A program made the translations under genes and the position numbers. This document shows positions 15,098 through 58,690 of a stretch of DNA of 64,000 nucleotides, in pieces. Location: the IMG/VR virus record IMGVR_UViG_3300028588_000820; one strand, written 5' to 3'. Under the pieces are notes generated by a model. It saw nothing but the letters and a program-made list of their open reading frames with translations, searched no databases and was not told the origin of the DNA. This stretch comes from a virus. Each line of letters starts with the position of its first letter. The first letter of the stretch is position 1.

Positions 15098-15538
15098 TTA
15101 GCCTAGATCAGCTGGGATCGCTTCAGCTGGGTTGCTGAATTCCATACCTGGCATCTTGGTGTCTTTCGAGATCGAAGCTGCAGCTAGACCACCACCAAAC
15201 TGGGTTGAAGTGGTACCGGTACCGCGCTTGACTTTGATTAGGTTTGAGTGGAAGAAATCTAGAGCGTTCATGCCGTTCTCTAGTTTTGACTGAGCTAGTA
15301 GTTCCCATAGTGGGTACTTGTCAGCGTGCTGCGAAGTCACGATGCGCTTTAGGCGAGCTTTATCGATCACGTCTAGTGGAGCGATATCGATGTAGTGTAG
15401 GGTGCCATCTTCAGCGCGCTTGACAACCGCGATTTCTTCCAGAACACCGTCGTTATTCACGTCGACGTATTCGATGTGATTTAGGGTTGGAGCTGCCTTA
15501 GGAGCAGCGGCTTGACGGGTTGATAGTTGGTTCTTCAT
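15098..15538 (-). CDS. late hypothetical protein
   Basis: AGGAG SD, TATAAATA promoter at 15575-15582, 13 of 14 Leu codons are CTA. Confidence 0.85.
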   Translation of the reverse strand: MKNQLSTRQAAAPKAAPTLNHIEYVDVNNDGVLEEIAVVKRAEDGTLHYIDIAPLDVIDKARLKRIVTSQHADKYPLWELLAQSKLENGMNALDFFHSNLIKVKRGTGTTSTQFGGGLAAASISKDTKMPGMEFSNPAEAIPADLG

Positions 15539-15713
15539 TTGTTCTCCTGTTATTTGAGATGGAATTTATGTTTATATTTATAGCCCCAGGAAGCGGTCTG
15601 TTTTGCTTCGTGGAGAACGCAATCTGCATAATTCTATTTATCTAGCGAAAAAAGCTCACTTTTAGGAGTTTCCGCAATAAAATACGTCGTACCCTATACT
15701 CCACAAAAATAAT

Positions 15714-15926
15714 ATGAACGACCTCGAACATCAATACTTGTTCGACAAAGTCGTTTCGGCTGCCGCTGAAATGGTTTATGTCGAAGCCAATATCACGTTG
15801 GATGAAGCCAAGAAGCGCGCATCCGATGCTCTGACCGCACTCTGGTCCTATGACCTTTCGCGCAACCTCAACAAGCGAGGTGTAATCGCCGAGCTCACCA
15901 AATCCATTGCAGACCAAATCAAATAA
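15714..15926 (+). CDS. hypothetical protein
   Basis: Leader ACAAAAATAATATG. Confidence 0.7.
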   Translation: MNDLEHQYLFDKVVSAAAEMVYVEANITLDEAKKRASDALTALWSYDLSRNLNKRGVIAELTKSIADQIK

Positions 15927-15927
15927 T

Positions 15928-17127
15928 ATGAACGCAAAAACTTTGCTTCGAGACTTTGTCTCTTCTATCACGACACCGACAATTCAACGTCGGCAAGTGA
16001 TGGAATACTTCAGCACCAAAGGTGACCTCGAGCGTATGCTCAACATCATCAAGGCGACCTGCGCCGATGCGATCGTATCGACCGAGCCAACCGTGTACAA
16101 CACCGACAAATTCATGAAATGTGTCGAAGCTATCAGCGATGATGCGGTTGCTGCTCCAGCACAACTTGAAGCAAAGCCAGCGTTCAATGTCGTCGATGGG
16201 CGTGCTGATCCGAACCAGCCAGATGTTATCAAAACGGCATCATATCTGGAACTTGAAGAACTGATCGATCCGCAGTACCCGATCAACATCTATGTCACTG
16301 GCGAGACCGGCCTCGGCAAGACGACTTCGATCTTCGCGATCGGCAAGAAGTTCAATAAGCCAGTGGTTCGCGTGAACATGTCCGGCTCCACCGACCTGGA
16401 TGACTTGATCGGCGGTATCCGTATCGTTGATGGCAACACCGTCTTCGATCCTGGTCCAGTCGCTCTTGCAATGGAGATGGGCGCGATCCTTTTGCTTGAC
16501 GAATGCGATGCTGGTAAGCCGCAAGTCATGATCGACCTCCACCCAGTCCTCGAGCGTAAAGGCGTCCTCGCCAAGAAAGCTCGCAAGATGATCTACCCAG
16601 CACCCGGGTTCTGTGTCATCGCAACCGGTAACTCGAAAGGCTCGGGTGATGTAACTGGTAAATACATTGGTGTAAATACCATGAATCACGCGTTCATGCA
16701 ACGCTTCGCCGCCGTTGTAGACTTCATAGCGCCCAATCGTGTTGAGATTGAGCATATCATCAGAGGTAACCAACCGAAGCTCCCTTACTCCGTCCTGGCG
16801 AACCTGTGCAACTGGTATCAGCACGTTCGCGAGTCGTACGAAGCTGGCACCGTATCTGAGTACATCAATGCTCGTAAGATGCAAGACATCGCAGCCATTT
16901 GCATGATCTATCGTGCGAAGAACGGTACCGACACTTGCGTCTTGAAAGCTCTGCGCAAAGCGCTTGCTCAATACGAACAATCGGTGGTCGATGCTCTGGT
17001 TCAACTGTACGACACGATCGTCGAAGACATCGACGAAAAGCAAGCACTGCAAGCGGCATCGGCACCGAGCCAACTTGCATCCGAACCAGCTCGGGTTGAC
17101 GAGACTGGACAGCCAATCCCATTCTAA
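15928..17127 (+). CDS. CobS/MoxR-like AAA+ ATPase
   Basis: GETGLGKT, DDLIGG, LLLDECD, IATGNSKG, AFMQRF; start ATG15928. Confidence 0.9.
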   Translation: MNAKTLLRDFVSSITTPTIQRRQVMEYFSTKGDLERMLNIIKATCADAIVSTEPTVYNTDKFMKCVEAISDDAVAAPAQLEAKPAFNVVDGRADPNQPDVIKTASYLELEELIDPQYPINIYVTGETGLGKTTSIFAIGKKFNKPVVRVNMSGSTDLDDLIGGIRIVDGNTVFDPGPVALAMEMGAILLLDECDAGKPQVMIDLHPVLERKGVLAKKARKMIYPAPGFCVIATGNSKGSGDVTGKYIGVNTMNHAFMQRFAAVVDFIAPNRVEIEHIIRGNQPKLPYSVLANLCNWYQHVRESYEAGTVSEYINARKMQDIAAICMIYRAKNGTDTCVLKALRKALAQYEQSVVDALVQLYDTIVEDIDEKQALQAASAPSQLASEPARVDETGQPIPF

Positions 17128-17129
17128 AC

Positions 17130-17369
17130 ATGATGCATAATCCTAAAATCGAAACCAAGCTGATGCTCGGTACCACTGAAATAGCAAAAGCTTTCTTGCT
17201 TGTTGTTCCAGATCGTGCCGAACGCATCGACATCGACGGCGCCGAGTACCAAGTTCTGGAACGTCGCTTTCATCTGAAGACTTCATACAACGGCGGCACG
17301 CCTTGCGGCTTCTCGCAATCTTGCACCCTTACCGTCAAGGCATTTAAACAGCCCACCCTGAATTGCTGA
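17130..17369 (+). CDS. hypothetical protein
   Basis: Between AAA+ and vWA genes. Confidence 0.65.
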   Translation: MMHNPKIETKLMLGTTEIAKAFLLVVPDRAERIDIDGAEYQVLERRFHLKTSYNGGTPCGFSQSCTLTVKAFKQPTLNC

Positions 17370-17370
17370 C

Positions 17371-19371
17371 ATGAACAAGAATCTTAAACCTGCAATCTCG
17401 AAGTCCGCTATGATGCTGCGGAACATGTATGACCTGTATGCGAAGATGCTTGCCGTCGAAAACATCCAGGTTGTCTTCGACGAAGCGATCGATGCTCCGG
17501 CGCAGTTCGACATTCTGAACCGAATTCTGTACATCGCGCCGGTTCATGCTACGCAGGTTGAATTGATTCCTGGCCTCGTGATTCATGAAGTCGGTCATGC
17601 TCTGTTCTCGACACTCACGCCAGAAGAACTGAAGAAGCTCAAGCGGATTTCGAAGTTGCTGAACATCATCGATGACGGCTATCAAGAACGAATGATGTGC
17701 AAGAAGTACGCGAACTCCAAGAAGCATTTGTTCACGATCTTCGACCACTTCTTCTTGCAGTTGAAGGAAGATGTTTATAACACGCCTAACAAGCTCGTAA
17801 ACATTGTCAACATCCTGAACTTCAACTGCAAGGGCTTTAAACATGGTCACTACAAAAAGTATCCATCGTATGTCCTTGAAGAGGACGTAAAGCTGCTTCA
17901 AGAGGCAGAGCAAATCGCTTTGCCAAAACTGATTGAACGCGATGAGTTCGCCAAGAAACTTGCACAAGCTTTGAAGAAGTACGGTGATATGGCCGAAGAT
18001 GGTACAGACTTGGATTCCGGGAAAGGAAAAGATTCTAAGTCTGGCCCGACTGACAAAGGCGAGCCAGATGACGCCGATGGTGAATCCGAAGATGGTGAAT
18101 CCGAAGATGGTGAATCCGAAGATGGCGAAAGTGGCGAGAGCGGCGATGATGCGGATGACGAGAGCGACCAGACTGGTGCTGGTGGCAATGGAGCTGCTGA
18201 AGACGATGTCGAAGAAATGCTCGAGAAGAACTCGGACAAGCTGAACGACCATCACAAGAAGTTTGAGCAAAACATGGGCGGCGCCGGGTCCTATGAATTG
18301 CCAACTGGCAAAGAGATTCTGGACTTCAGTCGCGTCATAGACATCTACGAGAAAGATAGTCAGGTTGACAGAGCCATAGCCAATGCCGGTGTGGACATTG
18401 CTGACAAGTATCGTCGTTGCCAGAAAGAGGCGAAACGTGTCGCGACCCAAATCTTCACGAAGTTCAATATGCGCCTTCAAGCGCAGAACTACGCGAACAC
18501 TCAGTTCAAGAAATCTGGTTCGCTTGATCCAGAACGCTGCGCTCTGTACCAAGTCTACGATGACGTCTTCGTCAAAGAAGCAATCGAGCCAAATCAAGTG
18601 AACAACGCTTACTCTGTGATCCTTGACTGGAGTGGTTCGATGAACAGTTCGGTCTATGCTCTGGTCCTCCGGATCATGGAGCTGACCTACTTCGCGAAGA
18701 TGGCCAACGTCGAAATCGAAGTTTGGATGTACACGACCAATGACGGAGCAGTCAGCTACAAGGGATGTCGTCGCAACATCGCTTTGACCAATTCGAAGAT
18801 GATCAAGGTCTTGAATACGAAGCAGCACAATCAGCTCGAGACCGAGACTCGACTGAAGCATCTCTGGTACATCACGCGCACCATCACGAACATGTCGCCA
18901 AAGCTTCAAGGTATTGACGGCTATACGTCGAGATATACCCTTAGCGGAACAAACATCCTTGAGGGCTTGATTCTTGGTCATTATGTTCTGTCTAAGATGG
19001 ACGCTGAGAAGAAGGCTTGCTTCTTGCTTACAGATGGCGATGACACGAGCGTGTTCAACGTTCTGTATCGTGCGGACGGCGGCCCATCCAAGAACTATGC
19101 CCCAGATGCGAAGATTTATTTGCATGGAATCAACGTGTCGCAGGCGTATAAGCGGAACCATGTGCGAGCATCGTCCTCAGCAGCGATAGCAGAGCTTTAC
19201 GCTGCGGCTGGTCAGAAAACTATTGGCATCGCATGGAATTGCCAGGGCGCCGCTATGGATGGCTATGCACACAATGTGATTCGTGTGTCTACCGGCGCGC
19301 AAGTGATTGAAGATGGCTACATCCATGCGCCGAATGTCTTCGTGGACGAAGTCGTCAAAAATTTGCTGTGA
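17371..19371 (+). CDS. CobT-like protein: HExxH domain, acidic linker, vWA domain
   Basis: HEVGHAL; DE-rich linker; LDWSGSM MIDAS; LLTDGD. Confidence 0.88.
   Translation: MNKNLKPAISKSAMMLRNMYDLYAKMLAVENIQVVFDEAIDAPAQFDILNRILYIAPVHATQVELIPGLVIHEVGHALFSTLTPEELKKLKRISKLLNIIDDGYQERMMCKKYANSKKHLFTIFDHFFLQLKEDVYNTPNKLVNIVNILNFNCKGFKHGHYKKYPSYVLEEDVKLLQEAEQIALPKLIERDEFAKKLAQALKKYGDMAEDGTDLDSGKGKDSKSGPTDKGEPDDADGESEDGESEDGESEDGESGESGDDADDESDQTGAGGNGAAEDDVEEMLEKNSDKLNDHHKKFEQNMGGAGSYELPTGKEILDFSRVIDIYEKDSQVDRAIANAGVDIADKYRRCQKEAKRVATQIFTKFNMRLQAQNYANTQFKKSGSLDPERCALYQVYDDVFVKEAIEPNQVNNAYSVILDWSGSMNSSVYALVLRIMELTYFAKMANVEIEVWMYTTNDGAVSYKGCRRNIALTNSKMIKVLNTKQHNQLETETRLKHLWYITRTITNMSPKLQGIDGYTSRYTLSGTNILEGLILGHYVLSKMDAEKKACFLLTDGDDTSVFNVLYRADGGPSKNYAPDAKIYLHGINVSQAYKRNHVRASSSAAIAELYAAAGQKTIGIAWNCQGAAMDGYAHNVIRVSTGAQVIEDGYIHAPNVFVDEVVKNLL
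18076..18120 (+). repeat. 15-bp tandem repeat x3 (DGESE)
   Basis: GATGGTGAATCCGAA x3 plus a degenerate fourth copy. Confidence 0.95.
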
Positions 19372-19421
19372 TTAGATTTCATATGTTATAATTGTTCCAA
19401 TTGGAAATAGAGAGAACAAAA

Positions 19422-19871
19422 ATGTCTATCACAGATAACCGTAAAGCTCGACATGACTATCACATCGAAGATCGTGTCGAAGCCGGCATCATGCTTCAAG
19501 GCTGGGAGGTTAAGGCGATTCACGCCAAACAAATCTCGCTGCAAGAAGCGTACGTGATCAGCAAGAATGGTTCGTTGCATCTGTTGGGTGCAACTATCAC
19601 CCCGCTGATCCAGGCGTCCTCGCACATCGCTAAGGAACCTAGCCGTACTCGTCAGCTGCTCTTGCATAAGAAAGAAATCGAGAATCTGACCGAGAAGGTC
19701 AAGCGCGCTGGCTACACCCTGGTGCCACTCAACATGCATTACAAGGATGGCAAGATCAAGTTGGAAATCGGTCTCGCCAAAGGCAAGAAACAACACGACA
19801 AGCGTGATGCTCAACAAGAGCGTGACGTCAAGCGCGACATCGATCGCGCAATGAAAGGCCACTGTGAGTAA
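19422..19871 (+). CDS. smpB: SsrA-binding protein
   Basis: NRKARHDY, EAGIxLxGWEVK, RTRxLLLHKKEI, GLAKGKKQHDKR; start ATG19422. Confidence 0.95.
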   Translation: MSITDNRKARHDYHIEDRVEAGIMLQGWEVKAIHAKQISLQEAYVISKNGSLHLLGATITPLIQASSHIAKEPSRTRQLLLHKKEIENLTEKVKRAGYTLVPLNMHYKDGKIKLEIGLAKGKKQHDKRDAQQERDVKRDIDRAMKGHCE

Positions 19872-20133
19872 GAAATATGACGGCGATGGCGTCATCGTTA
19901 AGTACGACGGTGCGCCATACGACAGTGAGTACCACTATCTCGTTGATATCGGGTACTTCGGTAAGATCATCAACCTTCGCACTTATGCAAAGGAGCCACG
20001 TCCACTTACCATGAACGGCAAGCATGTGGTATCTCGCTGGGTTGCATGCGCGATGATCGATGTGATCAAAGAGCAGTTTCCTCATGAGAACTTCAACTAC
20101 CTCGTGATCGAAAATGAACCAAACATTCTTTGA
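19864..20133 (+). CDS. hypothetical protein
   Basis: GTG start overlapping smpB end. Confidence 0.6.
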   Translation: MSKKYDGDGVIVKYDGAPYDSEYHYLVDIGYFGKIINLRTYAKEPRPLTMNGKHVVSRWVACAMIDVIKEQFPHENFNYLVIENEPNIL

Positions 20134-20317
20134 ACATGCAATGAAGATCATTGACAACCTGACCGATGAAGAAATCTTCAACGGCTTGGTTAAAGCTGGC
20201 TTTGATCCAGACAGCATCACCATTCGCCAATATCCTGAAATGCCTGAGGGCTATGATCCTCAGGCCAAAGCACCACCGCAAACATTCCCGTTCCACGAAC
20301 CGCTGTTCTGCGGATAA
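20114..20317 (+). CDS. hypothetical protein
   Basis: ORF in operon. Confidence 0.55.
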   Translation: MNQTFFEHAMKIIDNLTDEEIFNGLVKAGFDPDSITIRQYPEMPEGYDPQAKAPPQTFPFHEPLFCG

Positions 20318-20342
20318 CTTAAATTCCAAACACAAAAATAAT

Positions 20343-20657
20343 ATGGGTACTGTCAATATCAACGGCAAAATCTATCAGGGCAACAACATCGAAATCAACG
20401 GCAATAAGATCATCATCGACGGCGTCGAGCGGCGCGAAGATGTGAGCGGTGTCGTTGAAGTCCGTATCATGTCTGGTGAACCAGTCAATGTTTCAAGCGA
20501 CGCTTCGATTACTTGCAACAACGTGAAGGGCAATCTCTCCGCTGGCGGCAGTGTCAATTGCGATGATGTTGGTGGCAATGTGAGCGCTGGCGGCTCGGTC
20601 AATTGTGACAATATCGGCGGCAACGTAAGCGCTGGTGGTTCGGTGCGCTATGGCTGA
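20343..20657 (+). CDS. small beta-solenoid repeat protein
   Basis: 14-aa repeat GGNVSAGGSVNCDD ~x3; start ATG20343. Confidence 0.75.
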   Translation: MGTVNINGKIYQGNNIEINGNKIIIDGVERREDVSGVVEVRIMSGEPVNVSSDASITCNNVKGNLSAGGSVNCDDVGGNVSAGGSVNCDNIGGNVSAGGSVRYG

Positions 20658-24883: not shown

Positions 24884-26749
24884 ATGGAAAATAATATTTT
24901 GAAGCTGGATGGCATGGAAAAGATCGAGTCGGACAAGGCAGTTTACCTGCCGTCGAAGAGCCGCCTCACTACCGAAAGCGAACTCGCCAAAGAGAAACGC
25001 AAATCGCCATTCGACTTCTTCAAACTGCCGAAGGATGCAACCATTCGGTTCCTGCCAGACAGCACCGGTCCGCTGACCACGTCAAGGGACTATCTTAGCC
25101 GGTATGTCGACGTCTACAGTATGTATAACATCGCTGAAGACTGCGTCATCACTCCGCTGGACATGAGTGGCTCAATGGCCAGCGCAGTCACCGAAACCGG
25201 CAGGGAAGCTGTTCGCAAAATCATGGATGATTACCTGAAACATGCGAAAGGTATGAAGTCTCTGTACTACACCCGTTCGTCCAAGCCGGTTGATCCGATT
25301 ATCACCATCGACTCGCTGAGCATGATCGTCGACTCGATGAAGACCTACCGCGAGGAAGAAGCGACCGATACGCTGCGCATGAAAATCCTGAAGGATCGTG
25401 ACCATCGCCAAGCTGAAGGCTGCTTCTACGCCCCGTACATCCCAGAAGGTCTTGGCAAGAACGAGTACAAAGTAGTGGAGCCGATCGGGTCGACCGACAC
25501 TCTGTCGAAGGAAGAATTCACGGCCGAGCCACGAGACCTGGCTCAAAACAATCTGTGCCAAGAAATCCATGATCACATGATCAACCTCGAGGTCAGCTTC
25601 GACTTTCCGCTGAAAGGTAAGAAAGTCAATCCTTTCATCTGGGACATGGACATCAACTGCTTGTACGATCGAGTCAGCCCCGTTTTCGACATTGAAAAGC
25701 CGCTGAATCCATGTAATGAAATCCCACTGGGCAAGCCGATGAACGGAGTAATGTTCGACAGTGATGTGGACCTGACGCAGAACGAAAATTGGAAGTCGTG
25801 GTTCGAGACGAACACCAACTGCAACTTCTTCGACGCCGAAACCACCTTCGTCCGGCTACCAACAACCATCACCACTGGCAACGACTACCTGGACATCTTG
25901 TTTGGCAATGGACTGAAGCCTGGATCGGTGACCTTAATCGCAGGTCAGGCAGGCCTCGGCAAATCGGCACTGGCTAAGAACGCAGCTGCTGGTCTGTCGG
26001 TGAATGGCACCGAGTTCCTGTACGTGACCGTTGAAGAATCTGCAGACAAAGTTATCGAACGCATTCAAGCTCTGAACAACCACAACGTCGATACGAACTA
26101 CAAAGTCGTTCGTGCTGGCGATTGGTGCCTCAATGGCCTGATCAACCTGATTCGTGAAGAGACTGAAGACCTGGCAAATCCACGCGTTGTGATCGTCGAC
26201 GGACTGGACTTCTTCAAAGATGCTGGTGCGCATATCCTGGGACGCCAACTGCGTACCCTCGCTATGGACCTCGATGTCGCAATCGTCGGCACCAATCAGC
26301 TGGCTCGTGCTAGTAAATACGACATCAAGCCGCTACTGCCAAGTGGTGACTATGGTCTGCTGGCTGAAGTCGATGCTGCGGTTGCAATCACTCGCAATGG
26401 TTGCGAAACTGAACTGTCGATCATGAAGAATCGTCACAGCCACACCAATGCCAAGTTCTTGTTCGATGCAGGTAGCAACCTGATCTGGGAGCCACTGAAG
26501 GTCGCTGCGGTGAATACCGAAGTGTTCGAATGCACCTTCCCGAAGCAAAGCGAAGGACGCGGTTCACGCGTTACCGAGTTGCCAGGAGGCAACGCAGAAG
26601 TGATGGAAATTGCTGACATCGAATTCTTCAAAGGTAAGCTTCTGACGAATCTGAAAATGCCAGTCTCGAAGAAAGTAACCTTCGCTGACCTGAAAGCAGC
26701 ATTCGCTCCAAAGGTCGAACCAGACTACCCAGTCGCCGACTGGCTCTAA
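24884..26749 (+). CDS. RecA/DnaB-fold ATPase flanked by a mosaic of core-phage-protein motifs
   Basis: Core aa ~328-520 (AGQAGLGKS, YVTVEES, VIVDGL, TNQLAR, KNRH); flanks described in findings. Confidence 0.85.
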   Translation: MENNILKLDGMEKIESDKAVYLPSKSRLTTESELAKEKRKSPFDFFKLPKDATIRFLPDSTGPLTTSRDYLSRYVDVYSMYNIAEDCVITPLDMSGSMASAVTETGREAVRKIMDDYLKHAKGMKSLYYTRSSKPVDPIITIDSLSMIVDSMKTYREEEATDTLRMKILKDRDHRQAEGCFYAPYIPEGLGKNEYKVVEPIGSTDTLSKEEFTAEPRDLAQNNLCQEIHDHMINLEVSFDFPLKGKKVNPFIWDMDINCLYDRVSPVFDIEKPLNPCNEIPLGKPMNGVMFDSDVDLTQNENWKSWFETNTNCNFFDAETTFVRLPTTITTGNDYLDILFGNGLKPGSVTLIAGQAGLGKSALAKNAAAGLSVNGTEFLYVTVEESADKVIERIQALNNHNVDTNYKVVRAGDWCLNGLINLIREETEDLANPRVVIVDGLDFFKDAGAHILGRQLRTLAMDLDVAIVGTNQLARASKYDIKPLLPSGDYGLLAEVDAAVAITRNGCETELSIMKNRHSHTNAKFLFDAGSNLIWEPLKVAAVNTEVFECTFPKQSEGRGSRVTELPGGNAEVMEIADIEFFKGKLLTNLKMPVSKKVTFADLKAAFAPKVEPDYPVADWL

Positions 26750-27098: not shown

Positions 27099-28838
27099 AT
27101 GCCATCACAATCATTTAAAGATTATCTCGACGACAACGATTACAAGCCAACGCTGAAATCAAAGTCTAAGTCGATCGAATACCTAGAAGACCTCAGCGTC
27201 AAAGACTTCATCGATGCTATCCGCAATCTTCACAAAAGCATCGTGGCCGAAAAGCTAGACGGTACCGCATTGACATTCGGTCTTGACGATGATGGCGAGT
27301 TTTATACCACTCGCTCTGGCAAAGGCAGTTCGGACAAGCTATGCTACAAAGCTGCTGACTGGGGCATCTCCGCCGCATCGAATGGCTTCAAGGCCACTCA
27401 CGCTGCGTTGAAGAAGCATTTGGAAACCATTAAGACGGTGATGCAACCAGGTGAAGCGATGGACGTGGAAATCATGTTCGGTCGTCAACCAAATACCATC
27501 GTCTACGGCCTCGATGGCTACAACTACATCGCGTTCCTCAAATCCACTCCGGGCACCAATAAAGAATTGAAGGTCGATCAAAAGAAAGTCAAGAAGCTTT
27601 TCAACAAGCTGAAGGATGAAACTTCTGACGTCCGCACTATCAACGTCGATACAACCGATGGCGAGAACCTGGTCCAAGCACCGACTGTCACCAATTGGAA
27701 ATTTACCACCCCAGAATTCATTGACACTAAGCACTTCGAAGACTCTGACGTTAAGGCAGAACTCGAAAAGCTTGAGAAGTTTCTCAACAAGAGAAATGAC
27801 AAGATGTCTGACATTCTAAATCGTGATGTCACCAACTTCGAAGCGGCTCAAGTCCCATTGACCGATGTTCGTACTGCAATTCGCAGTCAAGCTAAAGCAG
27901 CAAAAGAGGACATCAACGATGCGATCATGAACAAATACAAGTTGCCAATCAAGCAGACATTGCTTGACAAATTTGTCCGTACGGTGAAGCCACGTTTGCA
28001 AGATCGCGATGTTGAGCCAGCGGAAGACTTGGGCATGGAAGGTATTGTCGTTCTTGATCCTAAGACACAGAAACAGTTCAAGATCGTAGACAAAGAAACC
28101 TTCACCACTTTGAACCGTTTCAACTACGAGGTCCGCAATAACATTCGTGGCGTTGTTCGCTCCGAAGATGAAGATGCTCCATTGAACCTGCGTGGCGGTT
28201 TGCTCGGCACTGCTAAGATTCGCATCGCTCGCTTGTTCAACATGCCAGGTCTCGGCAAAGGTTACACCACTAAGAAGGTCATCGCGAAGTTCAAAGGCGC
28301 TAATGCTGATGAGACTGTTGCAAACCTAGCACAATCGCTACAAGATGCTGATTGGAGAGCTTACAAGGAAAAGATCAACGCGATTATCGTTGACACTTTG
28401 AAAGAGCTTCAAGAGGCATTGGATAACTTCAAAGAGAATTTCCACGATTACAAAGTCAAGTTGGAAAGCGGTAAAGAAGTTGGCTACACACAAGAGGTTG
28501 TTCGTCGTACACTTCTAGTGTTTGCCGAGACTCGTCAATCTTTGAAGCGTATGCAAAGCAAGATCGACGAAGCTCAGGGCATGGAAGACATCATCGTCGG
28601 TATGTTCGGCAAATCGATTAAGCAACTATTCGGTGACACGCCTGAGGCCGGAGAGGACTCAATCACCGAAGATGAAGGTGGAGCTGGAGAACCAGTCGGT
28701 ACCGTCTCCCCTTTGGGCCCTGGTACGTTCAGCGGTGCCATTGCTCCACTACCGAAGCGTTTGTTCCCTGGCAAGATGATCCGTCGCATTGTCAAGACCG
28801 GCGTGAAGGTAAAGCGCAAAAAGAAGTCAAATAAATAA
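27099..28838 (+). CDS. ligase/nucleotidyltransferase-fold protein (DUF6267-like)
   Basis: IEYLEDL, EKLDG (KxDG), EGIVV, FKIVDKxxF; start probably ATG27099. Confidence 0.65.
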   Translation: MPSQSFKDYLDDNDYKPTLKSKSKSIEYLEDLSVKDFIDAIRNLHKSIVAEKLDGTALTFGLDDDGEFYTTRSGKGSSDKLCYKAADWGISAASNGFKATHAALKKHLETIKTVMQPGEAMDVEIMFGRQPNTIVYGLDGYNYIAFLKSTPGTNKELKVDQKKVKKLFNKLKDETSDVRTINVDTTDGENLVQAPTVTNWKFTTPEFIDTKHFEDSDVKAELEKLEKFLNKRNDKMSDILNRDVTNFEAAQVPLTDVRTAIRSQAKAAKEDINDAIMNKYKLPIKQTLLDKFVRTVKPRLQDRDVEPAEDLGMEGIVVLDPKTQKQFKIVDKETFTTLNRFNYEVRNNIRGVVRSEDEDAPLNLRGGLLGTAKIRIARLFNMPGLGKGYTTKKVIAKFKGANADETVANLAQSLQDADWRAYKEKINAIIVDTLKELQEALDNFKENFHDYKVKLESGKEVGYTQEVVRRTLLVFAETRQSLKRMQSKIDEAQGMEDIIVGMFGKSIKQLFGDTPEAGEDSITEDEGGAGEPVGTVSPLGPGTFSGAIAPLPKRLFPGKMIRRIVKTGVKVKRKKKSNK

Positions 28839-29754: not shown

Positions 29755-29755
29755 G

Positions 29756-30412
29756 ATGGACAAGTTTAACTATCCGAACATTGATACTGTCAACTACAAT
29801 GGACAGCGCTGGTACTCATGTGAGGAGGGTGTTGCGTACCCAAGTATCACGACGATTCTTGGGTTCACAATGCCAGAAGAAAAGAAGAAGAGCTTAGAGA
29901 ACTGGCGTACAATGTTGGGCCCAATCGTCGCTGAAAAGAAGATGAAGCAGGCTACGACACGTGGTACGCACGTTCACGAAATGCTCGAACAGTTCCTCAA
30001 AGGTGAGCCGGTCAAAACGGCTGGCATTCCACCAGAGGACATCGATGTCTTCAACTCACTCAAACTAAGCCTTCGTGGCATCACAGAAATCTACGGCCAA
30101 GAGATGGCCTTGTACTCTGACGTTTTGCAAGTTGCAGGCCGTTGTGACTTGGCTGGACGTTGGAAGGGTGAAGAAGCGATCATCGACTTCAAAACATCCG
30201 GTCGCTTCAAAGAAGAAAAAGAGATTCAAGACTATTGGGTCCAATGTGCATTTTATGCACTAGCTCACAATGAACAGTACGGAACGAACATCGAGAAGGG
30301 CGTGATCCTAATGGGTGTTGCTGGTGGCCTACCACAAGTCTTCGTAAAGGACTTGATGCCATATGTTTCGATCCTAGTTGAGCGAATCGAGAAATTCTAC
30401 AATTCACTGTAA
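29756..30412 (+). CDS. PD-(D/E)xK exonuclease (phage Cas4/YqaJ-like)
   Basis: YPSITTIL, RGTxVH, E, AGRCD, IIDFKTS, QxxxYA. Confidence 0.88.
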   Translation: MDKFNYPNIDTVNYNGQRWYSCEEGVAYPSITTILGFTMPEEKKKSLENWRTMLGPIVAEKKMKQATTRGTHVHEMLEQFLKGEPVKTAGIPPEDIDVFNSLKLSLRGITEIYGQEMALYSDVLQVAGRCDLAGRWKGEEAIIDFKTSGRFKEEKEIQDYWVQCAFYALAHNEQYGTNIEKGVILMGVAGGLPQVFVKDLMPYVSILVERIEKFYNSL

Positions 30413-30903: not shown

Positions 30904-30912
30904 GAGGATCAC

Positions 30913-44936: not shown

Positions 44937-45167
44937 TTATGGACGACGGGTCGCAGTCGTCAACTGCTTGATAGCGGTGTTGAACGCGACTGGTTCCACT
45001 CGTAGGTTGCCTAGATCGTAGTCGTCAACGATGCTTTGGTCGACGTTAGGGAAAACGAATGTGCCTTTGTTGCCATTCTTTTCGATGTGGGACATTTTGA
45101 CGCCTAGCACCTTTAGTGCTGCGGCAAGGATAATATCAGTGGTGCTTAGTTCCATTTTGTTTCTCAA
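44937..45167 (-). CDS. small protein (DUF5659-like)
   Basis: TTDIILAAALKVLG motif. Confidence 0.6.
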   Translation of the reverse strand: MRNKMELSTTDIILAAALKVLGVKMSHIEKNGNKGTFVFPNVDQSIVDDYDLGNLRVEPVAFNTAIKQLTTATRRP

Positions 45168-47429: not shown

Positions 47430-47759
47430 ATGCTTTACAAAGGTCGTCGTTATGGTATTTGCTCTAATGTAGTGATACTGCCGATCCTTACTGAAGATGG
47501 CATGCTCCAGCCTTACGTCAACCCAAGCATGCAGAATTACGTCTACTTCGGTCGCACATACCCAGATCGCCGGATTACACCAAACATGGTCAAGACGCGA
47601 TACAAGTGGGGCACTGAAGAGGATTCCGAATCGGTCTATGCTGAACCGATTCCGATCAAGTATTTTTCGTTAACCAATCTTGCCTTGTGCGTAGACAACT
47701 ATTTCTACCTGGCATACAATGGCCGCGTGTACAGGGCCAAGAAAACCCCATTGAGGTAA
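47430..47759 (+). CDS. early hypothetical protein
   Basis: AAGGAG SD before ATG47430. Confidence 0.7.
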   Translation: MLYKGRRYGICSNVVILPILTEDGMLQPYVNPSMQNYVYFGRTYPDRRITPNMVKTRYKWGTEEDSESVYAEPIPIKYFSLTNLALCVDNYFYLAYNGRVYRAKKTPLR

Positions 47760-47761
47760 TC

Positions 47762-48073
47762 ATGTCCACTTATCGTTTGAGCAATGCTGAGGAACAAGCC
47801 AAGCAATTCCCGGACGACTTCAACATCCCGTCGATGAAGGAACGGAAGGAAGTTCCCGACGGACATTACGTGAAACTTGGGTTTGAACTCGCGCCAGTCT
47901 CGTCGACTATCGGGATAGAATACCTCTGGGTGCGTGTCACTGAGCGTGAAGCCGCTGATGGCACGTACTACGGTACCCTCGATGATTCGCCGCAGTTTGC
48001 AACCAACGTGACGGTTAACGATTCGATTCAGTTCGAGACCGAAAACATTTACGGGATCATGGCTCCCAGATAA
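47762..48073 (+). CDS. DUF2314/YegJ-like protein
   Basis: VKLGF...EYLWVRV...YYGTLDDSP...IQF; GAGG SD. Confidence 0.6.
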   Translation: MSTYRLSNAEEQAKQFPDDFNIPSMKERKEVPDGHYVKLGFELAPVSSTIGIEYLWVRVTEREAADGTYYGTLDDSPQFATNVTVNDSIQFETENIYGIMAPR

Positions 48074-48081
48074 GGAAAGAA

Positions 48082-48495
48082 ATGAAACAAGGAGATTTGT
48101 ACTCCTATGCGACGATAAGTCTGCAATCGCATGGGTTTAGCATCCGCACCAACCGTGACTTCCGTTACGAGCTGGTCGGCAACTACATGGATGGCTACGT
48201 CTTGAATGGCACAGTCGACAACAAAGTTCGCGTGAAGCCGGACGAGTCGGAGGTTCTTCGTTTAGATGACCGCTTTCCAAACGATCGCTCGAACTACATC
48301 ATGGTCTATCCAGCCGACCAGTCAGAAGAGCACATCACCAACACGATTCTTAGGCAGCTCGAGGTCGTTATCAAGCAGCATGTCGAGGTGTACCAGACGC
48401 TGTACGAGAACGCCAAGTCGATGCTGACTGAGGTACAGAAAGGAAGGATGGGACACATCTGTCCGCCTGGCTTGTTCATCGATCATCAGCAATAA
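48082..48495 (+). CDS. hypothetical protein
   Basis: AAGGA SD. Confidence 0.7.
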   Translation: MKQGDLYSYATISLQSHGFSIRTNRDFRYELVGNYMDGYVLNGTVDNKVRVKPDESEVLRLDDRFPNDRSNYIMVYPADQSEEHITNTILRQLEVVIKQHVEVYQTLYENAKSMLTEVQKGRMGHICPPGLFIDHQQ

Positions 48496-52587: not shown

Positions 52588-55500
52588 TCAAAATGAGTAC
52601 CCGAGAGGCACAAGCACCGGAGAATCAAACGAATTTGATGAGCCAATAACCAAATCTTGGTTCAAACCTGAAACTACTGCCTCACCGTATGGCTTCGACA
52701 ATTTGAAGTTTTCTGGGTCAGAAACATCTTCAACGTTGTAGTGGAAAATACCACCGCTGATCTTCATACCAAGCTCAAGGCTTGGGAACGAAGACACCCA
52801 ATCAGACGACGAAAGAATTGCAATAGATTCACCAGACATATTGGTGCGGAACTTTACGCGGTATTCACCAACAGAGCTTAGGTATGGAACAACAGAACCC
52901 GGCACATCGGTGTAACCCCATGCAATCGGACGCTGTCTCCAGGTACGCTTACGAGAATACAACTCTGGTAGAGCGACTTCACCCGATGCTCGTACGTCGG
53001 CAGGAATCGACGAGTCACCTTCTTGACGTGCTACGAGTTCAGCATATTTAGAAGGATGAACAGTGGACTCGGTCCATTCGTACAACTCGACCTTTGCCCA
53101 GTCAGCCATCGCGCCCCAGTATGAAAGACGAGTATCCATGTTAGGGAAAATCTGACGATCACAGTATGGGATGTATTCCAAGTTCTTGGTGTTCCACCAC
53201 ACGCGACCTACATCCTTATCATCCCATGGACGGTACACATCATAGTTCACGTTGTTGATCTTACGAACGGAGTAGTTGTACTTCGCTGGTTCGTTCGGCG
53301 AAATGATGTCCACAATCTCAAGCGCTTCTGGAGTATGTGAGCCACGTGCCGGGTCCCACAAGCTCAAGTCAGAGATGATCACTTTGTTCTTGTAGTCAAT
53401 CAATTTCGCTGGACTGAACTTTGGCTGTGATGGACCATAGCAGCGAACGGTGTATTTACCACCAGTCACGTAGCCAGGACGAGCAAAGCCATTGAACTTG
53501 ATCGTCGATGAATTGATCAATGCGTACTCCACACCTTCGGTCAACTGAAGTAGGAATGGCGTGTCACGAACATCGAGATCATTGTCTGGCACAGTTACTT
53601 CCAAGAACACTTGAACCGCGTCGCAAATGACCTTCTTGCCATTCTGTACTAGGTCGTAAATCTTGGTTGGCCAAGGATCAACGAATACAAGTTCAGCAAT
53701 CTTCTCACCTACGAAGGTCACATCGTGGTTCAAGTCTTCAGCGGATACCCAACGCGACTCGTCGTCGTTTGAGATGTTGATGAAGCCGACCTGTGATGGA
53801 GCAGTCGAACTAGTGAAGTTAATCTTCGTATAATTGTGTTGCGCATCCGCGGTTGATAGCTTGATTTCAGGGAAGGCAAGTTGGCGCGCGTCGCCGAAGC
53901 TTGCAAGCTTGTATGCCCAGAATTCATCGATCTTCGCTGAGGTGAATCGAGCGGAGTTCAAGAATGCATTCACCGATAGGTTCGAACCTTTGTTCGACAC
54001 AAGACCACGCCAGAATCCGAATTGCGATTTGTCGGTCATCTCGATGTCAGACATGTACTTCTTAGGTTCATAGCCAAGTAGGCCGCGAGCGTGGCGAGCT
54101 GTTTCGCTTTCATCGATCATGCGATCTGCATCGTAGTAGTTCAGCATATCACCAATCGAGGCTTCGATGTTACGCTTGACCTTGTGATCCTTGATGTAAT
54201 GGCCGCCAAATGATAGACGTCCATTGAACTTCACTTGACGTTCAGCGGATAGGAACATGCGGTTGACACGAACACCTAGGAACGGATCGTAGATCAACTT
54301 GGAACGCGATTGATCGAACACATAGTTATTAAACAGCGTAATGTGTTCGTACTCGTCAACGATCAAGTGAACACCGCCCATTACAACCGCCGACTGAATT
54401 TCGGTCATCTCATCGTCACGGAAGATTTGGATGTCACTGTCGTGAATCTTGTTGCCGAACGAGTCGAAGATTGTCTGTGAGGACAATGCATCAGTCATCG
54501 AGGTTTTACGCATGTTCGAGACGAAGCCATGTGGGGTGCTGAACCACACATTGGTTGCGAACGGATTCAAGATTGAACCAGTGCCGGCTTCAACTCCTAG
54601 ATATTGCTGGTTGATGAAGCGCTCAACAAACATTTGCCAGTTGATGACGCGACCAGTTTGTTCATCGATTGATGGCTCCTTACCTTGGTTGAATCTCCAA
54701 CCTTGTTCTTCTAGACGATCAACATATCCGTAAATGATGTTCGCTACGTTCTCGATACCGGTCACAGTGAATGGGACGACCTTCGTAACGAGCGCCTTGC
54801 GGTCCTGAAGCTTCTTCCATTCGTCTGGTGAGTTAGCCTTCTCAAACGCGTTGAAAGTGACGTAGCGGCCTTCCTTGTCGTACTCGTAGTACTCGATGGT
54901 TGGGTTGTTGGTATTGAAGGTCTCAATACGGAACACCCAGTCTGCACCCTTGTTGCGTGGGACATTACGGCCATTCACCATTTGGGTGGTACCGACGCGG
55001 ATCAACTGCACACGAATAGCGTTTAGCCAGTGGTTCGAAATGCCCTTGTTCTCCTTGATGATAACACTGTAATCGTTATCGCTCATTTGGAACTGGTCGG
55101 TGCGAATCGATAGCAATTCGGTATTCACGAGACCGGACATTCTGTAACCTAGCTTCAAGTCCCAGTCACGTAGTAGATTGTTCGCAAGAGCAACGCTCAT
55201 GTCAACCGAGTTGTAACGATTTAGGTTCACGAACCATTGGTTCAGGCCATTGAACTTGCTGTATGGCGAAGCTACAAACTTATCAGTGCCATCGGTTGAT
55301 AGCACGATCTTGTCGCCGATGTTGAAGTCGGAGCCGTTGTCATTTAGGACGAAACGAATCTGCGCTGAAATGAACTCGGTGTTCACAACATAGTTTTTGG
55401 TTACGACGCCTGAGAAATCGCCCTTAACAGTGAAGATACTTCCGTGTGCCCCATTGCCGACACAGGTCAGTGTCCAGACTTTATCGTCGGTCGAGTTAAA

Positions 55501-58194
55501 CGACTTCTTAGAGATGTCGTAGCCATTGAATTTTGGAGTCGGTGCTTCACCATGGAGAAGAAGCTCGTGGTGGCTCAACACTCGGTGCTCGTGACGGTCG
55601 ATGGTGTAATCGCCAATGGTCACCGTGTTTTGACCCCACGCAGAATTCACGAAGCGAATCGGGTCAATCAAGAAGCCAACCTTCAATGCGTCATAGCGAT
55701 AGTCGATAGAATTGCGCCATGTGAATTCGGTAGGACCGTTGTCACCAAATGAGTACGCGTCCGCGATACCGCTTGGGATCACGTTGATCAAAGCTTCAGC
55801 CGCATTCTCGTCAGATGCTGAAACGTATGGTGGCAGTAGACGATCAGTATGAATGTCCACACCCAATGGCTTCGCCCATGCAGCCTTAATATCGGCCCAC
55901 ATCTGAGTGTTCCACATGCGAGTACCGTCAGTAGCCATGTACATTTCAGCCCAACCATCCGGCATCGCGTCGTGGCCAAGTAGAACCCATGGCTCTAGGT
56001 TAGGGCGCGGAGTACCGAAATACGCCTTGTACATATCGAACCAACGAGCATACGACACGCCATCGATCGCAACAGCCTTGTAGTTCCAAGTGAATGCATC
56101 GGTTGGATTGTAGTCGCCAGTGTAGAGGTCCAGACTATTCTTCGCAGCATAGACCGCAAGTTGCTCTTCAAGTAAGCGTGCCGCCTGATCAGTGTTTTGC
56201 GCAAACGTCGAGTCGATGTCGATCTTCGAAGTATTGAATGGGCAATCTTGGTATAGCTGATTCTCGATCATCAACGTGATTTGGGATGCAACGACGCCAA
56301 TGTTCAGAACAGCCCATGCTTGCGAAATGTCGCCTTGCTCGATCCAGCCTTCGCCGTCAAATGCGAATAGCTTGTTTTGAGCGCGCACATAGAACGTATC
56401 ACCAACTGAAGCCGGGAATACTGGACCAGTGTCTGACTTAACAGCGAAGTACTTTAGTTCATTGGTGTTTGCGTCATACCAGAATTGATTCTTGTATGGG
56501 CGAGCTGGTGGCAAGTATCCGATAACGCCTGGAGTAGAGGAGCCATCAGAACGCTTGAATACCATATTGGCGATGTTCTTCTCAGTCGCCACGTTTGTTA
56601 CGTCAACCGCGGATAGGTGTCCGTCATGATGCTGAAGCATCAATGCGCCGATGCTTTGATCGAAGTAGATGCTTGGCTGATATGCTTTGCCTAGACCCAG
56701 GTAAGGAATAGTCGCGACCCAACCGACGATACTCGAGGTTGTATCGCTGAAGACTGACGCATCGTTACGTGAAGCAACTGAAGCTAGGAATTCTTTGTAA
56801 AGCGGTGCAAGCGATTCATCTTCGTCGTTTGATAGCATCGTGCTTGGAGCAACCACCTTTCCATCAACGATGAAGTCCGCAACGTTGCGAGTCACAAACT
56901 CGTTGATTGAGTTTAGCAACTGTGCGTATTGAAGCTTACCGAATTCGATAATGCTTGGCACAGATACATCAAGTTGATTTGCGAGTCCAAGGAATAGACC
57001 AAAGTTGGTGTTGTAATCCTTGATGCGGCCGCCAAGACCTAGGTCGTAGGAATCAATGTTGCGGAAGTTATTCACACCGAATGGATTGCCTTCGAATTCA
57101 GGTTGGTTCTTGATAATGTCAGTGAAGTGGCCTAGGAGGTCGCCATAGCCAACCTGCTTACGGTTCTCGTGGGTGACGTTATGAAACATCTGCTTCGGAT
57201 GCTTCCACACCCTGGCGCCGTCCTCGTCGGTCACGTAGGTAGGAGCTTCAGCTGGACCCTTCTTCCAGATCGATTGTAGTTCATCGCCTAGTTTGTAGAA
57301 TAGGATGCGCTTGCCGTCCTTGCTGATCAAGCCTTGTTCGAATGTAAAGTCGCCGTACGCGTCCTTGACGATACGTGCCTTCAGTGCAGTGTCGACTGCG
57401 TAGTCATTACCTTCCGCATAGTAGAAGATTGGGCTGACGAAGCCTGAGTGCTTGCCGGTGTGAAGGTATAGGTTGAACAGAGGCTTCTGGTTAAAGCTAG
57501 TCTTGGCCTGAACAATCTCTTCGCCTTCGTCGCCTGGGCGGCCGTCAGCGATTCGTAGAACCATGCTTGATTCTAGACGAACATCATATTCGATGATTGG
57601 GCGCACTGCTTGGATAGTAGTGTCGATGGTGAAGTTCGCGCCGATGCCCATAGCCAGTTCAGCTACATCTTCTTCATGAACCCAGTAGTTGTGCTTTGCC
57701 CAGTCTGAGCTACCACCTGGACCGATCACATAGTATTCTGGCGCCATGGTTGGGTTGTACGATGGGGCGTCTGCGCCAAGTAGGTGGCCGTACCAACGGT
57801 AGCGAGAGTAGTTTGTGAACTTGTCTAGGTTGATTGGTGGTACAAAGTTGAAGCCAACAGCTGCGCCCCATTCTGCGAAGTTGTCGATGTCGACACCTAG
57901 CATTTCTAGTTTCTTCAATACGTCGTTGAAGGTGAAGATGTGTTCTTCGGCGCCGAGCTTAGTGTAGACCGATGGCACTAGCGAGTTGATCTGGCGATCG
58001 AGGTCTGCTGCTGGAACGTATGGTGAGGTGTCATGAGCCACCGCGTCGCCAACATACCCGAGGACCTTTGCGGACTCTTCCTTGGTAAGGAACTTGTTGT
58101 GCAAGTTTCTAAGGATCGAAGTACCAGCAACGGTGCGGTAACGTTGTGGGATGTAACTTACGAGGTCGGTGAATTTTTTGGTGTAGTCTGACAT
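52588..58194 (-). CDS. very large virion/baseplate protein
   Basis: 1868 aa; PPINLDKFTNYxxYxW, PxLEPWxLLG motifs; TATAAATA at 58227. Confidence 0.75.
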   Translation of the reverse strand: MSDYTKKFTDLVSYIPQRYRTVAGTSILRNLHNKFLTKEESAKVLGYVGDAVAHDTSPYVPAADLDRQINSLVPSVYTKLGAEEHIFTFNDVLKKLEMLGVDIDNFAEWGAAVGFNFVPPINLDKFTNYSRYRWYGHLLGADAPSYNPTMAPEYYVIGPGGSSDWAKHNYWVHEEDVAELAMGIGANFTIDTTIQAVRPIIEYDVRLESSMVLRIADGRPGDEGEEIVQAKTSFNQKPLFNLYLHTGKHSGFVSPIFYYAEGNDYAVDTALKARIVKDAYGDFTFEQGLISKDGKRILFYKLGDELQSIWKKGPAEAPTYVTDEDGARVWKHPKQMFHNVTHENRKQVGYGDLLGHFTDIIKNQPEFEGNPFGVNNFRNIDSYDLGLGGRIKDYNTNFGLFLGLANQLDVSVPSIIEFGKLQYAQLLNSINEFVTRNVADFIVDGKVVAPSTMLSNDEDESLAPLYKEFLASVASRNDASVFSDTTSSIVGWVATIPYLGLGKAYQPSIYFDQSIGALMLQHHDGHLSAVDVTNVATEKNIANMVFKRSDGSSTPGVIGYLPPARPYKNQFWYDANTNELKYFAVKSDTGPVFPASVGDTFYVRAQNKLFAFDGEGWIEQGDISQAWAVLNIGVVASQITLMIENQLYQDCPFNTSKIDIDSTFAQNTDQAARLLEEQLAVYAAKNSLDLYTGDYNPTDAFTWNYKAVAIDGVSYARWFDMYKAYFGTPRPNLEPWVLLGHDAMPDGWAEMYMATDGTRMWNTQMWADIKAAWAKPLGVDIHTDRLLPPYVSASDENAAEALINVIPSGIADAYSFGDNGPTEFTWRNSIDYRYDALKVGFLIDPIRFVNSAWGQNTVTIGDYTIDRHEHRVLSHHELLLHGEAPTPKFNGYDISKKSFNSTDDKVWTLTCVGNGAHGSIFTVKGDFSGVVTKNYVVNTEFISAQIRFVLNDNGSDFNIGDKIVLSTDGTDKFVASPYSKFNGLNQWFVNLNRYNSVDMSVALANNLLRDWDLKLGYRMSGLVNTELLSIRTDQFQMSDNDYSVIIKENKGISNHWLNAIRVQLIRVGTTQMVNGRNVPRNKGADWVFRIETFNTNNPTIEYYEYDKEGRYVTFNAFEKANSPDEWKKLQDRKALVTKVVPFTVTGIENVANIIYGYVDRLEEQGWRFNQGKEPSIDEQTGRVINWQMFVERFINQQYLGVEAGTGSILNPFATNVWFSTPHGFVSNMRKTSMTDALSSQTIFDSFGNKIHDSDIQIFRDDEMTEIQSAVVMGGVHLIVDEYEHITLFNNYVFDQSRSKLIYDPFLGVRVNRMFLSAERQVKFNGRLSFGGHYIKDHKVKRNIEASIGDMLNYYDADRMIDESETARHARGLLGYEPKKYMSDIEMTDKSQFGFWRGLVSNKGSNLSVNAFLNSARFTSAKIDEFWAYKLASFGDARQLAFPEIKLSTADAQHNYTKINFTSSTAPSQVGFINISNDDESRWVSAEDLNHDVTFVGEKIAELVFVDPWPTKIYDLVQNGKKVICDAVQVFLEVTVPDNDLDVRDTPFLLQLTEGVEYALINSSTIKFNGFARPGYVTGGKYTVRCYGPSQPKFSPAKLIDYKNKVIISDLSLWDPARGSHTPEALEIVDIISPNEPAKYNYSVRKINNVNYDVYRPWDDKDVGRVWWNTKNLEYIPYCDRQIFPNMDTRLSYWGAMADWAKVELYEWTESTVHPSKYAELVARQEGDSSIPADVRASGEVALPELYSRKRTWRQRPIAWGYTDVPGSVVPYLSSVGEYRVKFRTNMSGESIAILSSSDWVSSFPSLELGMKISGGIFHYNVEDVSDPENFKLSKPYGEAVVSGLNQDLVIGSSNSFDSPVLVPLGYSF

Positions 58195-58315
58195 TAACTT
58201 CTTCCATTTGGTATTCGTTATGGAGATATTTATAAAATGTCCGTTTCTTAAAATTTGTGATATTATGGCTCAAGTGATAAATATGGAATAACATCTCCTA
58301 TATCAGAGGAATCAA

Positions 58316-58690
58316 ATGACTAAACTAATAGACATCTTCGAAGCGAAGATCAGCGGCCAACCATCGCCGCTAGCCGAAGCTAAGAACAAAGGAAGCGTTA
58401 AGCTAAAACCATGGGCAACTGAGCTAGCAGCGATCATCGAAAAAGGTCGCCCAAGTACCGAATTTGGTATTGGTGGCATGGGTGGTGAAGGCGAAACGAT
58501 CACCAAAGCAGAAATGAAAAAGATCGTGGACGCTTTCAAAGCGGCGGGATATGAAGTCAAGAAAGGCCAACATGGCTATAAAGGCGACTTCATCTACAGC
58601 AAGGAAGACCCAAAGAAAGGCGTATTCTTCACCGTTGATCCATGGGAAGAAGGCGATACCAACGTCATCGGCATGGCTTGGAACGACTAA
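58316..58690 (+). CDS. late protein, probable internal head protein
   Basis: Own late promoter at 58277; MTKLIDIFE...LAE; 4 of 4 Leu codons are CTA. Confidence 0.75.
   Translation: MTKLIDIFEAKISGQPSPLAEAKNKGSVKLKPWATELAAIIEKGRPSTEFGIGGMGGEGETITKAEMKKIVDAFKAAGYEVKKGQHGYKGDFIYSKEDPKKGVFFTVDPWEEGDTNVIGMAWND

Follow-up and report, generated by a model that had tools for sequence, protein, structure and literature searches.

The subject of this study is the choice of leucine codon in a 64,000-nucleotide stretch of viral DNA (the window, whose positions serve as coordinates throughout), which is the reverse strand of positions 7585-71584 in the 103,584-base IMG/VR virus record IMGVR_UViG_3300028588_000820. 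Gene calling on the complete 103.6 kb contig gave 139 genes with 92% of the sequence coding, and the leucine codons were counted gene by gene. Among the products are a family B DNA polymerase, a DnaB-like helicase, two thymidylate-synthase-family enzymes, a MazG-like hydrolase and a DsbA-like regulator, together with baseplate, tail and virion proteins and a permuted transfer-messenger RNA (tmRNA). The fragment belongs to an uncultured T4-like jumbo phage. The nearest relatives with complete genomes, of 343 and 350 kb, are jumbo phages too; they have terminal repeats and a Gp23 capsid protein of the T4 type, and the contig is collinear, in inverted orientation, with the region from 240 to 343 kb of one relative (G001). 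The record is classed as a trimmed 'provirus' with a CheckV completeness of about 30%, which corresponds to a genome of roughly 345 kb of which about 70% is missing. No close match to the contig was found among the deposited phage genomes. The replication-type genes of this phage spell leucine with CTG and its virion genes with CTA, and this contrast is real and very sharp.

Leucine codons in the genes of the window

Leucine codon usage varies strongly among the genes, with G = 1572 against 762 +/- 36 in simulations (z = 21.6), and a chance origin is therefore excluded. For all other amino acids the between-gene synonymous heterogeneity gives z = 1.2-9.2. Genes with at least 5 leucines and not a single CTA number 27, where 8.9 are expected. 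Three leucine-rich open reading frames (ORFs) at 70475-71548(-) (locus L150, beyond the window) were left out of this count. They are probable antisense artefacts of a plus-strand gene running off the contig, and a relative with 90% identity (L153) has a 581-aa plus-strand gene at their position. A preliminary description of the window had counted leucine codons by hand in several genes, and all these counts are reproduced exactly by our per-gene recount.

The genes at both extremes are listed in Table 1. When the genes of the virion block that have an orthologue in G001 are pooled, 34% of their leucines are encoded by CTA and 9% by CTG. CTA also makes up 10 of the 20 leucine codons of the gene 28867-29754, where it occupies codons 3, 6, 7 and 9 after the ATG, and 5 of 10 in 30466-30903. 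At the other extreme, a thymidylate-synthase-like gene outside the window has CTG for 22 of its 25 leucines, and not one CTA is found among the 112 leucine codons between 16000 and 20657.

Table 1. Genes and upstream boxes of the window, with leucine codon counts
Feature	Position	Strand	Leucine codons	Remarks
85-aa gene	1698-1955	+	3/3 CTG	box 1676-1684
DsbA-like regulator	6571-6933	+	8/12 CTG	PF11126; box 6552-6561
Family B DNA polymerase	7338-10043	+	31/81 CTG	box 7319-7328
248-aa gene just after DNA polymerase	10448-11194	+	19/25 CTG	AAAAATAAT box 10439-10447 abuts ATG
Small genes	13868-14068 and 14411-14590	+	3/3 and 4/4 CTG	
146-aa gene, unassigned function	15098-15538	-	13/14 CTA	opposite strand within replication block
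T4-late-like box TATAAATAT	15574-15582	-		upstream of 15098-15538
Run nearly without CTA	15714-20657	+		CobS-like ATPase, peptidase-like protein, small ORFs
621-aa DnaB/KaiC-fold ATPase	24884-26749	+	40/59 CTG, 2 CTA	
Late-box units	28867-32403	+		genes 28867-29754, 29756-30412, 30466-30903, 30913-32403; late boxes 28830-28838, 30436-30444
RimK-like ATP-grasp gene	30913-32403	+	14/32 CTA, 1 CTG	late box
108-aa gene	34645-34971	+	11/12 CTG, 0 CTA	sigma70-like box ends 34594
Virion block: tail, baseplate, structural genes	36081-62376	-		annotation
Minor tail protein	39914-41578	-		annotation, virion block
200-aa late gene	42241-42843	-	8/13 CTA	PHROG 21918
642-aa virion structural protein	42940-44868	-	48/59 CTA, 1/59 CTG	PHROG 16122; most extreme CTA gene
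72-aa late gene	44937-45155	-	5/7 CTA	conserved in G001 (68%) and G002 (60%)
Three small genes within late block	47430-48495	+	0 CTA/25	sigma70-like box ends 47393
Virion protein	52588-58194	-		annotation, virion block
124-aa gene	58316-58690	+	4/4 CTA	late box 58276-58284; opposite strand within virion block
Baseplate wedge	58741-62376	-		annotation, virion block
ACAAAAATAATA boxes	1676-1684, 2765-2774, 6552-6561, 7319-7328, 10097-10105, 10439-10447, 15705-15713, 32396-32405			others outside the window

Upstream boxes and selection at the codon level

Two kinds of boxes show a very strong enrichment upstream of the genes. The motif ATAAATA precedes 23 genes, against 1.5 expected, at a distance of 26-47 nt from the ATG, and most of these are virion genes. 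As in T4, a TATAAATA-type box thus lies shortly upstream of the late genes. The second box, ACAAAAATAATA, ends 0-18 nt before the ATG in about 25 genes, mostly for replication and nucleotide metabolism. It often adjoins the start codon, with no Shine-Dalgarno sequence, and could be a translation signal or else a phage-specific promoter whose mRNAs are leaderless or have a very short leader. A third motif, AAAA(G/T)TT..(T/A)AT(T/A)AT, is similar to a sigma70 extended -10 element. Its copies end at 34594, 47393 and 58266 and precede 34645-34971, 47430-47759 and 58316-58690, the last of which has a late box as well. As there are only 3-4 instances, no statistics are given for this class.

Genes were assigned to classes by the closest box upstream of them within their strand run, which yields 84 pre-late and 42 late genes. 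Between the motif-class units, CTA increases from 15% in the pre-late (ACAAAAATAATA) units to 32% in the late-box units (p = 2e-21), and CTG decreases from 32% to 9% (p = 2e-43). No other codons in the codon table separate the classes as well as CTG and CTA; TCA of Ser (3e-11) and GCC of Ala (9e-11) come next. At the gene level, motif class and gene function separate the CTG from the CTA class with p = 4e-10 (Mann-Whitney). Codon-usage classes thus correlate with expression time, as judged from motif type and gene function, and the earlier proposal that early genes use CTG and late genes CTA holds when the genes are split by promoter class. The strand islands 15098-15538, 58316-58690 and 47430-48495 each use the codon of their own promoter class. 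Since these opposite-strand islands follow their own boxes, the switch tracks the transcription unit and not the strand or the position.

The effect is specific for the reading frame. In the zero-CTA genes, CTA occurs 0 times in frame and at 2.6 and 5.2 per kb out of frame, compared with 3.6 and 4.9 per kb genome-wide. The avoidance therefore acts on the codon and not on the DNA word. Furthermore, the CTA-rich and the CTG-rich classes alike favour ATC, TTC, TGC and CGT and avoid ACA, GTA, GGA and AGR. These shared preferences are stronger than average in both, and the classes diverge at Leu and, mildly, at Ser, Ala and Thr. The effective number of codons (Nc) was calculated without leucine as an unsupervised measure of bias. 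A lower Nc goes with a higher CTA fraction in late units (rho = -0.51, p = 0.003) and with a higher CTG fraction in the pre-late ones (rho = -0.34, p = 0.015). The genes with the strongest overall bias are those at the leucine extremes. The lowest non-Leu Nc belongs to 34645-34971 (27.9), and that of 42940-44868 (28.8) is among the lowest of the contig. The G+C content at third codon positions (GC3) is 0.50 in late and 0.58 in pre-late genes. A general third-position A bias acting equally on all four-fold boxes, which the preliminary description had named as the competing explanation, was checked and is not what we find. In the CTN box, A at the third position rises 2.4-fold from pre-late to late genes and G falls to 0.32-fold, compared with a 1.2-fold rise of A in the non-Leu four-fold boxes, in which Ala, Gly, Val and Arg hardly change. 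The selection is at the codon level and specific to the gene class.

Some genes in and around the window deserve a brief description. In the protein encoded by 30913-32403, a RimK-like ATP-grasp domain is joined to a putative zinc-protease domain (PF08443 and PF05618). Since ribosomal protein S6 is modified by RimK, the gene would be another translation-related function of the phage. A short C-terminal segment of the ATPase 24884-26749 (residues 552-595) matches the T4 portal family PF07230 with E = 1.3e-5. For 10448-11194 no Pfam or PHROG match was found; gene order alone would make it a candidate sliding clamp. The two thymidylate-synthase-family genes, at L152:11188-12084 and L151:12836-13813, are both strongly CTG-biased. 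One is canonical (PF00303, E = 3.5e-107). The second is divergent (E = 2.4e-14) and may encode an enzyme of the dCMP or dUMP hydroxymethylase type, involved in DNA base modification. The stop codons of the 139 genes are TAA in 104, TGA in 34 and TAG in 1. The sole TAG, at window position -12520 (locus L151), lies directly behind the thymidylate synthase gene, between two adjacent ORFs that share a frame. Suppressor-type transfer RNAs (tRNAs) with the anticodon CUA are present in the relatives G001, G002 and G005, which points to suppression of amber codons or avoidance of TAG in this group of phages.

The permuted, two-piece tmRNA at L151:4911-5331 (about window -4747 to -5167) carries the tag ANDNSFRVAA. 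Its score against Rfam RF04321 is 91 bits, while its match to the betaproteobacterial tmRNA family falls just below the threshold; as a pointer to the host lineage the tmRNA type is a weak hint. A scan of bacterial assemblies with the phage polymerase, aimed at the missing part of the genome, gave no match. The ThyA matches, tried as a host clue, are to Firmicutes at about 43-45% identity and were discarded as uninformative.

Related phages and the probable cause of the codon switch

The leucine pattern was compared with relatives of different distance. It is kept gene by gene in L001, a relative with 92% identity, and not in the AT-rich L002 (70%). The L001 orthologue of 15098-15538 (93% identical) uses CTA for 14 of 14 leucines, and that of 10448-11194 uses CTG for 18 of 25. 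In L001 the orthologues of the run 15714-20657 have 0-1 CTA, and those of 13868-14068 and 14411-14590 have 4/5 and 4/4 CTG. A count of 0/55 CTA is also part of the gene-by-gene comparison. The picture is different in G001, where the orthologue of the 642-aa virion protein has 0 CTA and 28 CTG among 51 leucines, and the orthologue of 15098-15538 has 1 CTA and 8 CTG among 14. The late leucine codon is thus specific to the lineage.

Large tRNA sets are present in these relatives. ARAGORN finds 52 tRNA genes in G001 and 56 in G002, which are both complete, 39 in G003 (85% complete) and 44 in G004 (51%); the sets of the two complete genomes are close to full. The main array of G001 lies at 195-214 kb, about 26 kb past the right syntenic end of the contig. 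The leucine anticodons are CAG, GAG, UAA and CAA in G001; UAG, UAA, GAG (two copies) and CAA in G002; GAG, CAA, UAA and UAG in G003; UAG (two copies) in G004; and CAA, UAG, UAA and GAG in G011, a 13%-complete fragment. tRNA-Leu(UAG) is therefore encoded by 4 of the 5 relatives that were typed. The tRNA sequences of the relatives have no exact shared stretch of at least 30 nt, and the idea that the Leu(UAG) of G011 is an anticodon mutant of the Leu(CAG) of G001 was dropped because the two sequences are not closely related. Inside the arrays, genes for GIY-YIG homing endonucleases are found (G001 212171-212692, G004 161661-162230), which fits a turnover of the tRNA arrays driven by mobile elements. 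An array-embedded protein that had been considered as a marker of the arrays proved to be such a mobile endonuclease and was rejected. Five fragments with CTA-rich capsid genes (G006-G010) are 12-22% complete and have no tRNAs in them; they were set aside as uninformative.

We took the Gp23 capsid gene as the best reporter of late, high expression. It uses CTG for 24 of 32 leucines in G001, which has tRNA-Leu(CAG); CTC for 18 and TTG for 9 of 35 in G002, which has two GAG and a CAA tRNA; and CTA for 20 of 32 in G003, which has UAG. The main leucine codon of the capsid gene is thus cognate to a phage tRNA-Leu in 3 of 3 near-complete relatives. G002, without CAG, is two-mode like the contig: its strongly biased genes of early type use CTG and its late genes TTG or CTC. 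From early to late, CTG falls there from 28% to 15% (p = 1e-22) and TTG rises from 25% to 39% (p = 1e-20). G001, with CAG, has a single leucine mode without an early/late split in CTG. Among 80 metagenomic Gp23 loci, the leucine codon used most varies widely and can be CTA (up to 28/31), CTG, TTG, TTA or CTT, so that a capsid gene dominated by CTA would not set this phage apart.

CTA is avoided in one class and preferred in the other although the genes are equally biased, which a static tRNA pool cannot achieve. We regard as robust the conclusion that the two gene classes are translated at times that differ in how effectively CUA and CUG can be decoded. As for cause and timing, both of which we infer, a shift from a host pool rich in tRNA-Leu(CAG) to a phage-tRNA pool with tRNA-Leu(UAG) and without tRNA-Leu(CAG) is the probable explanation. 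There would be two translational regimes with different optimal leucine codons. The pre-late genes for replication and nucleotide metabolism, with ACAAAAATAATA-type or sigma70-like boxes, would be tuned to a pool that reads CUG well and CUA poorly. This early pool would presumably be that of the uninfected host, dominated by tRNA-Leu(CAG). An indirect hint that the host serves CTA poorly is the lack of this codon in 27 pre-late genes. The late virion genes with T4-type ATAAATA boxes would be tuned to a later pool that reads CUA best and CUG poorly. The change would most likely come from a large phage tRNA set accumulating as the host supply declines, a set predicted to include tRNA-Leu(UAG) and to be without tRNA-Leu(CAG). 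In phage Sf14, the codons of late genes are reported to match the tRNAs that the phage itself supplies (PMC12482277).

Several points weigh against this explanation. No tRNA gene is present in the window or in the whole 103.6 kb contig, about 30% of the genome, and the phage tRNA-Leu(UAG) is therefore a prediction. This absence is not decisive because the record is trimmed, and for the same reason we rejected the argument that the idea is refuted by the lack of a phage tRNA. A match between the capsid codon and a phage tRNA has little diagnostic weight, since each relative covers 4 of the 5 leucine anticodon types. Moreover, G002 and G011 carry tRNA-Leu(UAG) and yet have almost no CTA in late genes, and the capsid gene of G011 is CTG-rich with no CAG tRNA in the 13%-complete fragment; tRNA gene content alone does not set the late codon. 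The early and late timing is deduced from promoter-like motifs and gene function, and the early tRNA pool is presumed. In addition, Shewanella phage 1/4, with only 2-3 tRNA genes, has a capsid gene with a preference for CTA (PMC9963407). The tRNA-based interpretation of the preliminary description, a phage-supplied tRNA-Leu(UAG) with the host tRNA-Leu(CAG) lost or bypassed, is supported in part. The dependence on promoter class, the frame specificity and the exclusion of a mere third-position A bias are in its favour, and the two relatives with Leu(UAG) and almost no late CTA weaken it.

The Shewanella phage would also fit an effect of the host pool alone, in which CUA is the host's fastest leucine codon for top-expressed genes, owing to multi-copy tRNA-Leu(UAG). 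The late virion genes would then be the ones best adapted to this host pool, without any need for a phage tRNA. Among the metagenomic relatives, Gp23 genes dominated by CTA are frequent. The general codon preferences of our phage, CCA, CAA, CGT and GGT, resemble those of some marine gammaproteobacteria with multi-copy tRNA-Leu(UAG). The CTG of the pre-late genes could then reflect early competition with host mRNAs for tRNA-Leu(UAG), or other reasons on the demand side. Nevertheless we consider the host pool an unlikely sole cause: when static, it leaves the complete avoidance of CTA in equally biased pre-late genes (0/112; 27 genes against 8.9) as well as the avoidance of CTG in late genes unexplained, the G001 orthologues use CTG for the same proteins, and the phage family has very large tRNA sets. 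Another account, compatible with the favoured shift to a phage-tRNA pool, stresses depletion over supply. Here the loss of host tRNA-Leu(CAG), by phage-induced cleavage or by a host anticodon nuclease, is the main driver: late genes drop CTG in favour of any leucine codons that can still be read, and lineages with their own tRNA-Leu(CAG) keep it. Such an event has a precedent in E. coli, where a leucine tRNA is reportedly cleaved specifically after T2/T4 infection (Kano-Sueoka and Sueoka in 1968, Yudelevich in 1971). The avoidance of CTG is the strongest single signal in our data. The contig shifts to CTA and TTG and G002, lacking CAG, to TTG and CTC, and G001 with its own CAG keeps CTG in capsid and virion genes. 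A nuclease-evasion model for phage tRNAs has been put forward (PMC10264068). However, the three lineages compared are non-independent, the G011 capsid gene does not conform, no nuclease candidate was identified, and a general decay of all host tRNAs gives the same pattern, which makes this driver possible but rather unlikely. We tentatively consider, at similarly modest odds, that the host's CUG-reading tRNA-Leu(CAG) is specifically lost and that related jumbo phages evolved alternative answers to it by means of phage tRNAs. G001 would keep late CTG with its own CAG, and the others would have recoded their late genes, to CTA here and to TTG or CTC in G002. If this is true, the leucine codons of late genes would be a readable genomic record of a phage-host conflict at the tRNA level.

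In a gating mechanism, CTA in late genes would delay their translation until the phage tRNA-Leu(UAG) appears, in the manner of bldA (tRNA-Leu UAA) and TTA-codon control in Streptomyces. The many pre-late genes without CTA agree with it, as does the cluster of CTA at the start of the gene at 28867 (4 of the first 10 codons). It is very unlikely nonetheless, because gating systems use few rare codons in the regulated genes and CTA is here the majority codon, and because late promoters already give temporal control. In the late genes with the strongest bias, presumably those expressed most, CTA accounts for 70-93% of leucines, and its share scales with general codon bias, which is a signature of optimisation. 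A non-translational cause, namely mutational or strand bias, horizontal transfer of gene blocks or avoidance of a DNA motif, would agree with the lower GC3 and the 1.2-fold rise of third-position A in late genes, and with a zero-CTA block (16000-20133) that has no orthologues in G001 or G002. Such a cause is largely refuted by the frame specificity, and the leucine shift far exceeds the general shift. The most CTA-rich genes avoid ACA, GTA and GGA, the opposite-strand islands obey their own promoter class, core conserved genes occur in both classes, and the pattern is conserved in L001. We therefore hold it to be extremely improbable.

Significance and comparison with known systems

Codon differences between early and late genes have been documented for many phages (PMC5683454). 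The present case is of the same kind and differs from those already known in being unusually sharp. Why phages carry tRNA genes is debated, with codon compensation, host tRNA decay and escape from anticodon nucleases as candidate reasons. The phage described here gives an unusually clean readout for this debate, a near-binary codon flip at one amino acid between expression classes. Since related genomes chose different late codons and differ in their leucine tRNA sets, the models are testable by comparative genomics. Furthermore, the CTA/CTG ratio and the two upstream boxes predict the expression class of genes in a poorly annotated genome.

The capsid gene of Shewanella phage 1/4 has CTA, ATC and TAC as preferred codons, and tRNA modifications change upon infection (PMC9963407). 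The two phages are alike in that a highly expressed late gene prefers CTA, unlike the early genes. They differ in that modification changes are invoked for the Shewanella phage with its few tRNA genes, and that no CTA-free early class is described for it. In the 'all-destructive infection' of Yang et al. 2021, as outlined in PMC12482277, the supply of tRNAs from the host dwindles and late genes depend on those of the phage. The present system resembles this model, since its late structural genes have a different codon use that is apparently matched to a phage-supplied pool, and since the tRNA sets of the relatives are near-complete. It departs from the model in the two relatives that have tRNA-Leu(UAG) without using CTA, and it is known from genes alone.

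Cleavage of a leucine tRNA as in T2/T4 infection would explain the avoidance of CTG in late genes, with the difference that neither a candidate gene nor a sequence sign of such an activity is seen here. With bldA, our phage shares the feature that a single leucine codon marks a temporally regulated gene set; the codon is rare and sparse in Streptomyces and dominant in abundant proteins here. The codon-usage classes of early and late genes in phage T4 were reportedly linked to phage tRNAs (Cowe and Sharp in 1991, Kunisawa in 1992). Like T4, the phage studied here encodes a family B polymerase, its late boxes resemble TATAAATA, and its relatives have a Gp23 capsid protein. Its codon-usage classes likewise match the presumed expression time, and its family carries tRNA genes. 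The relatives encode 39-56 tRNAs, compared with 8 in T4, the phage's own tRNAs not being seen in the contig. Unlike in T4, a single amino acid carries most of the contrast, which is nearly binary in the most biased genes.

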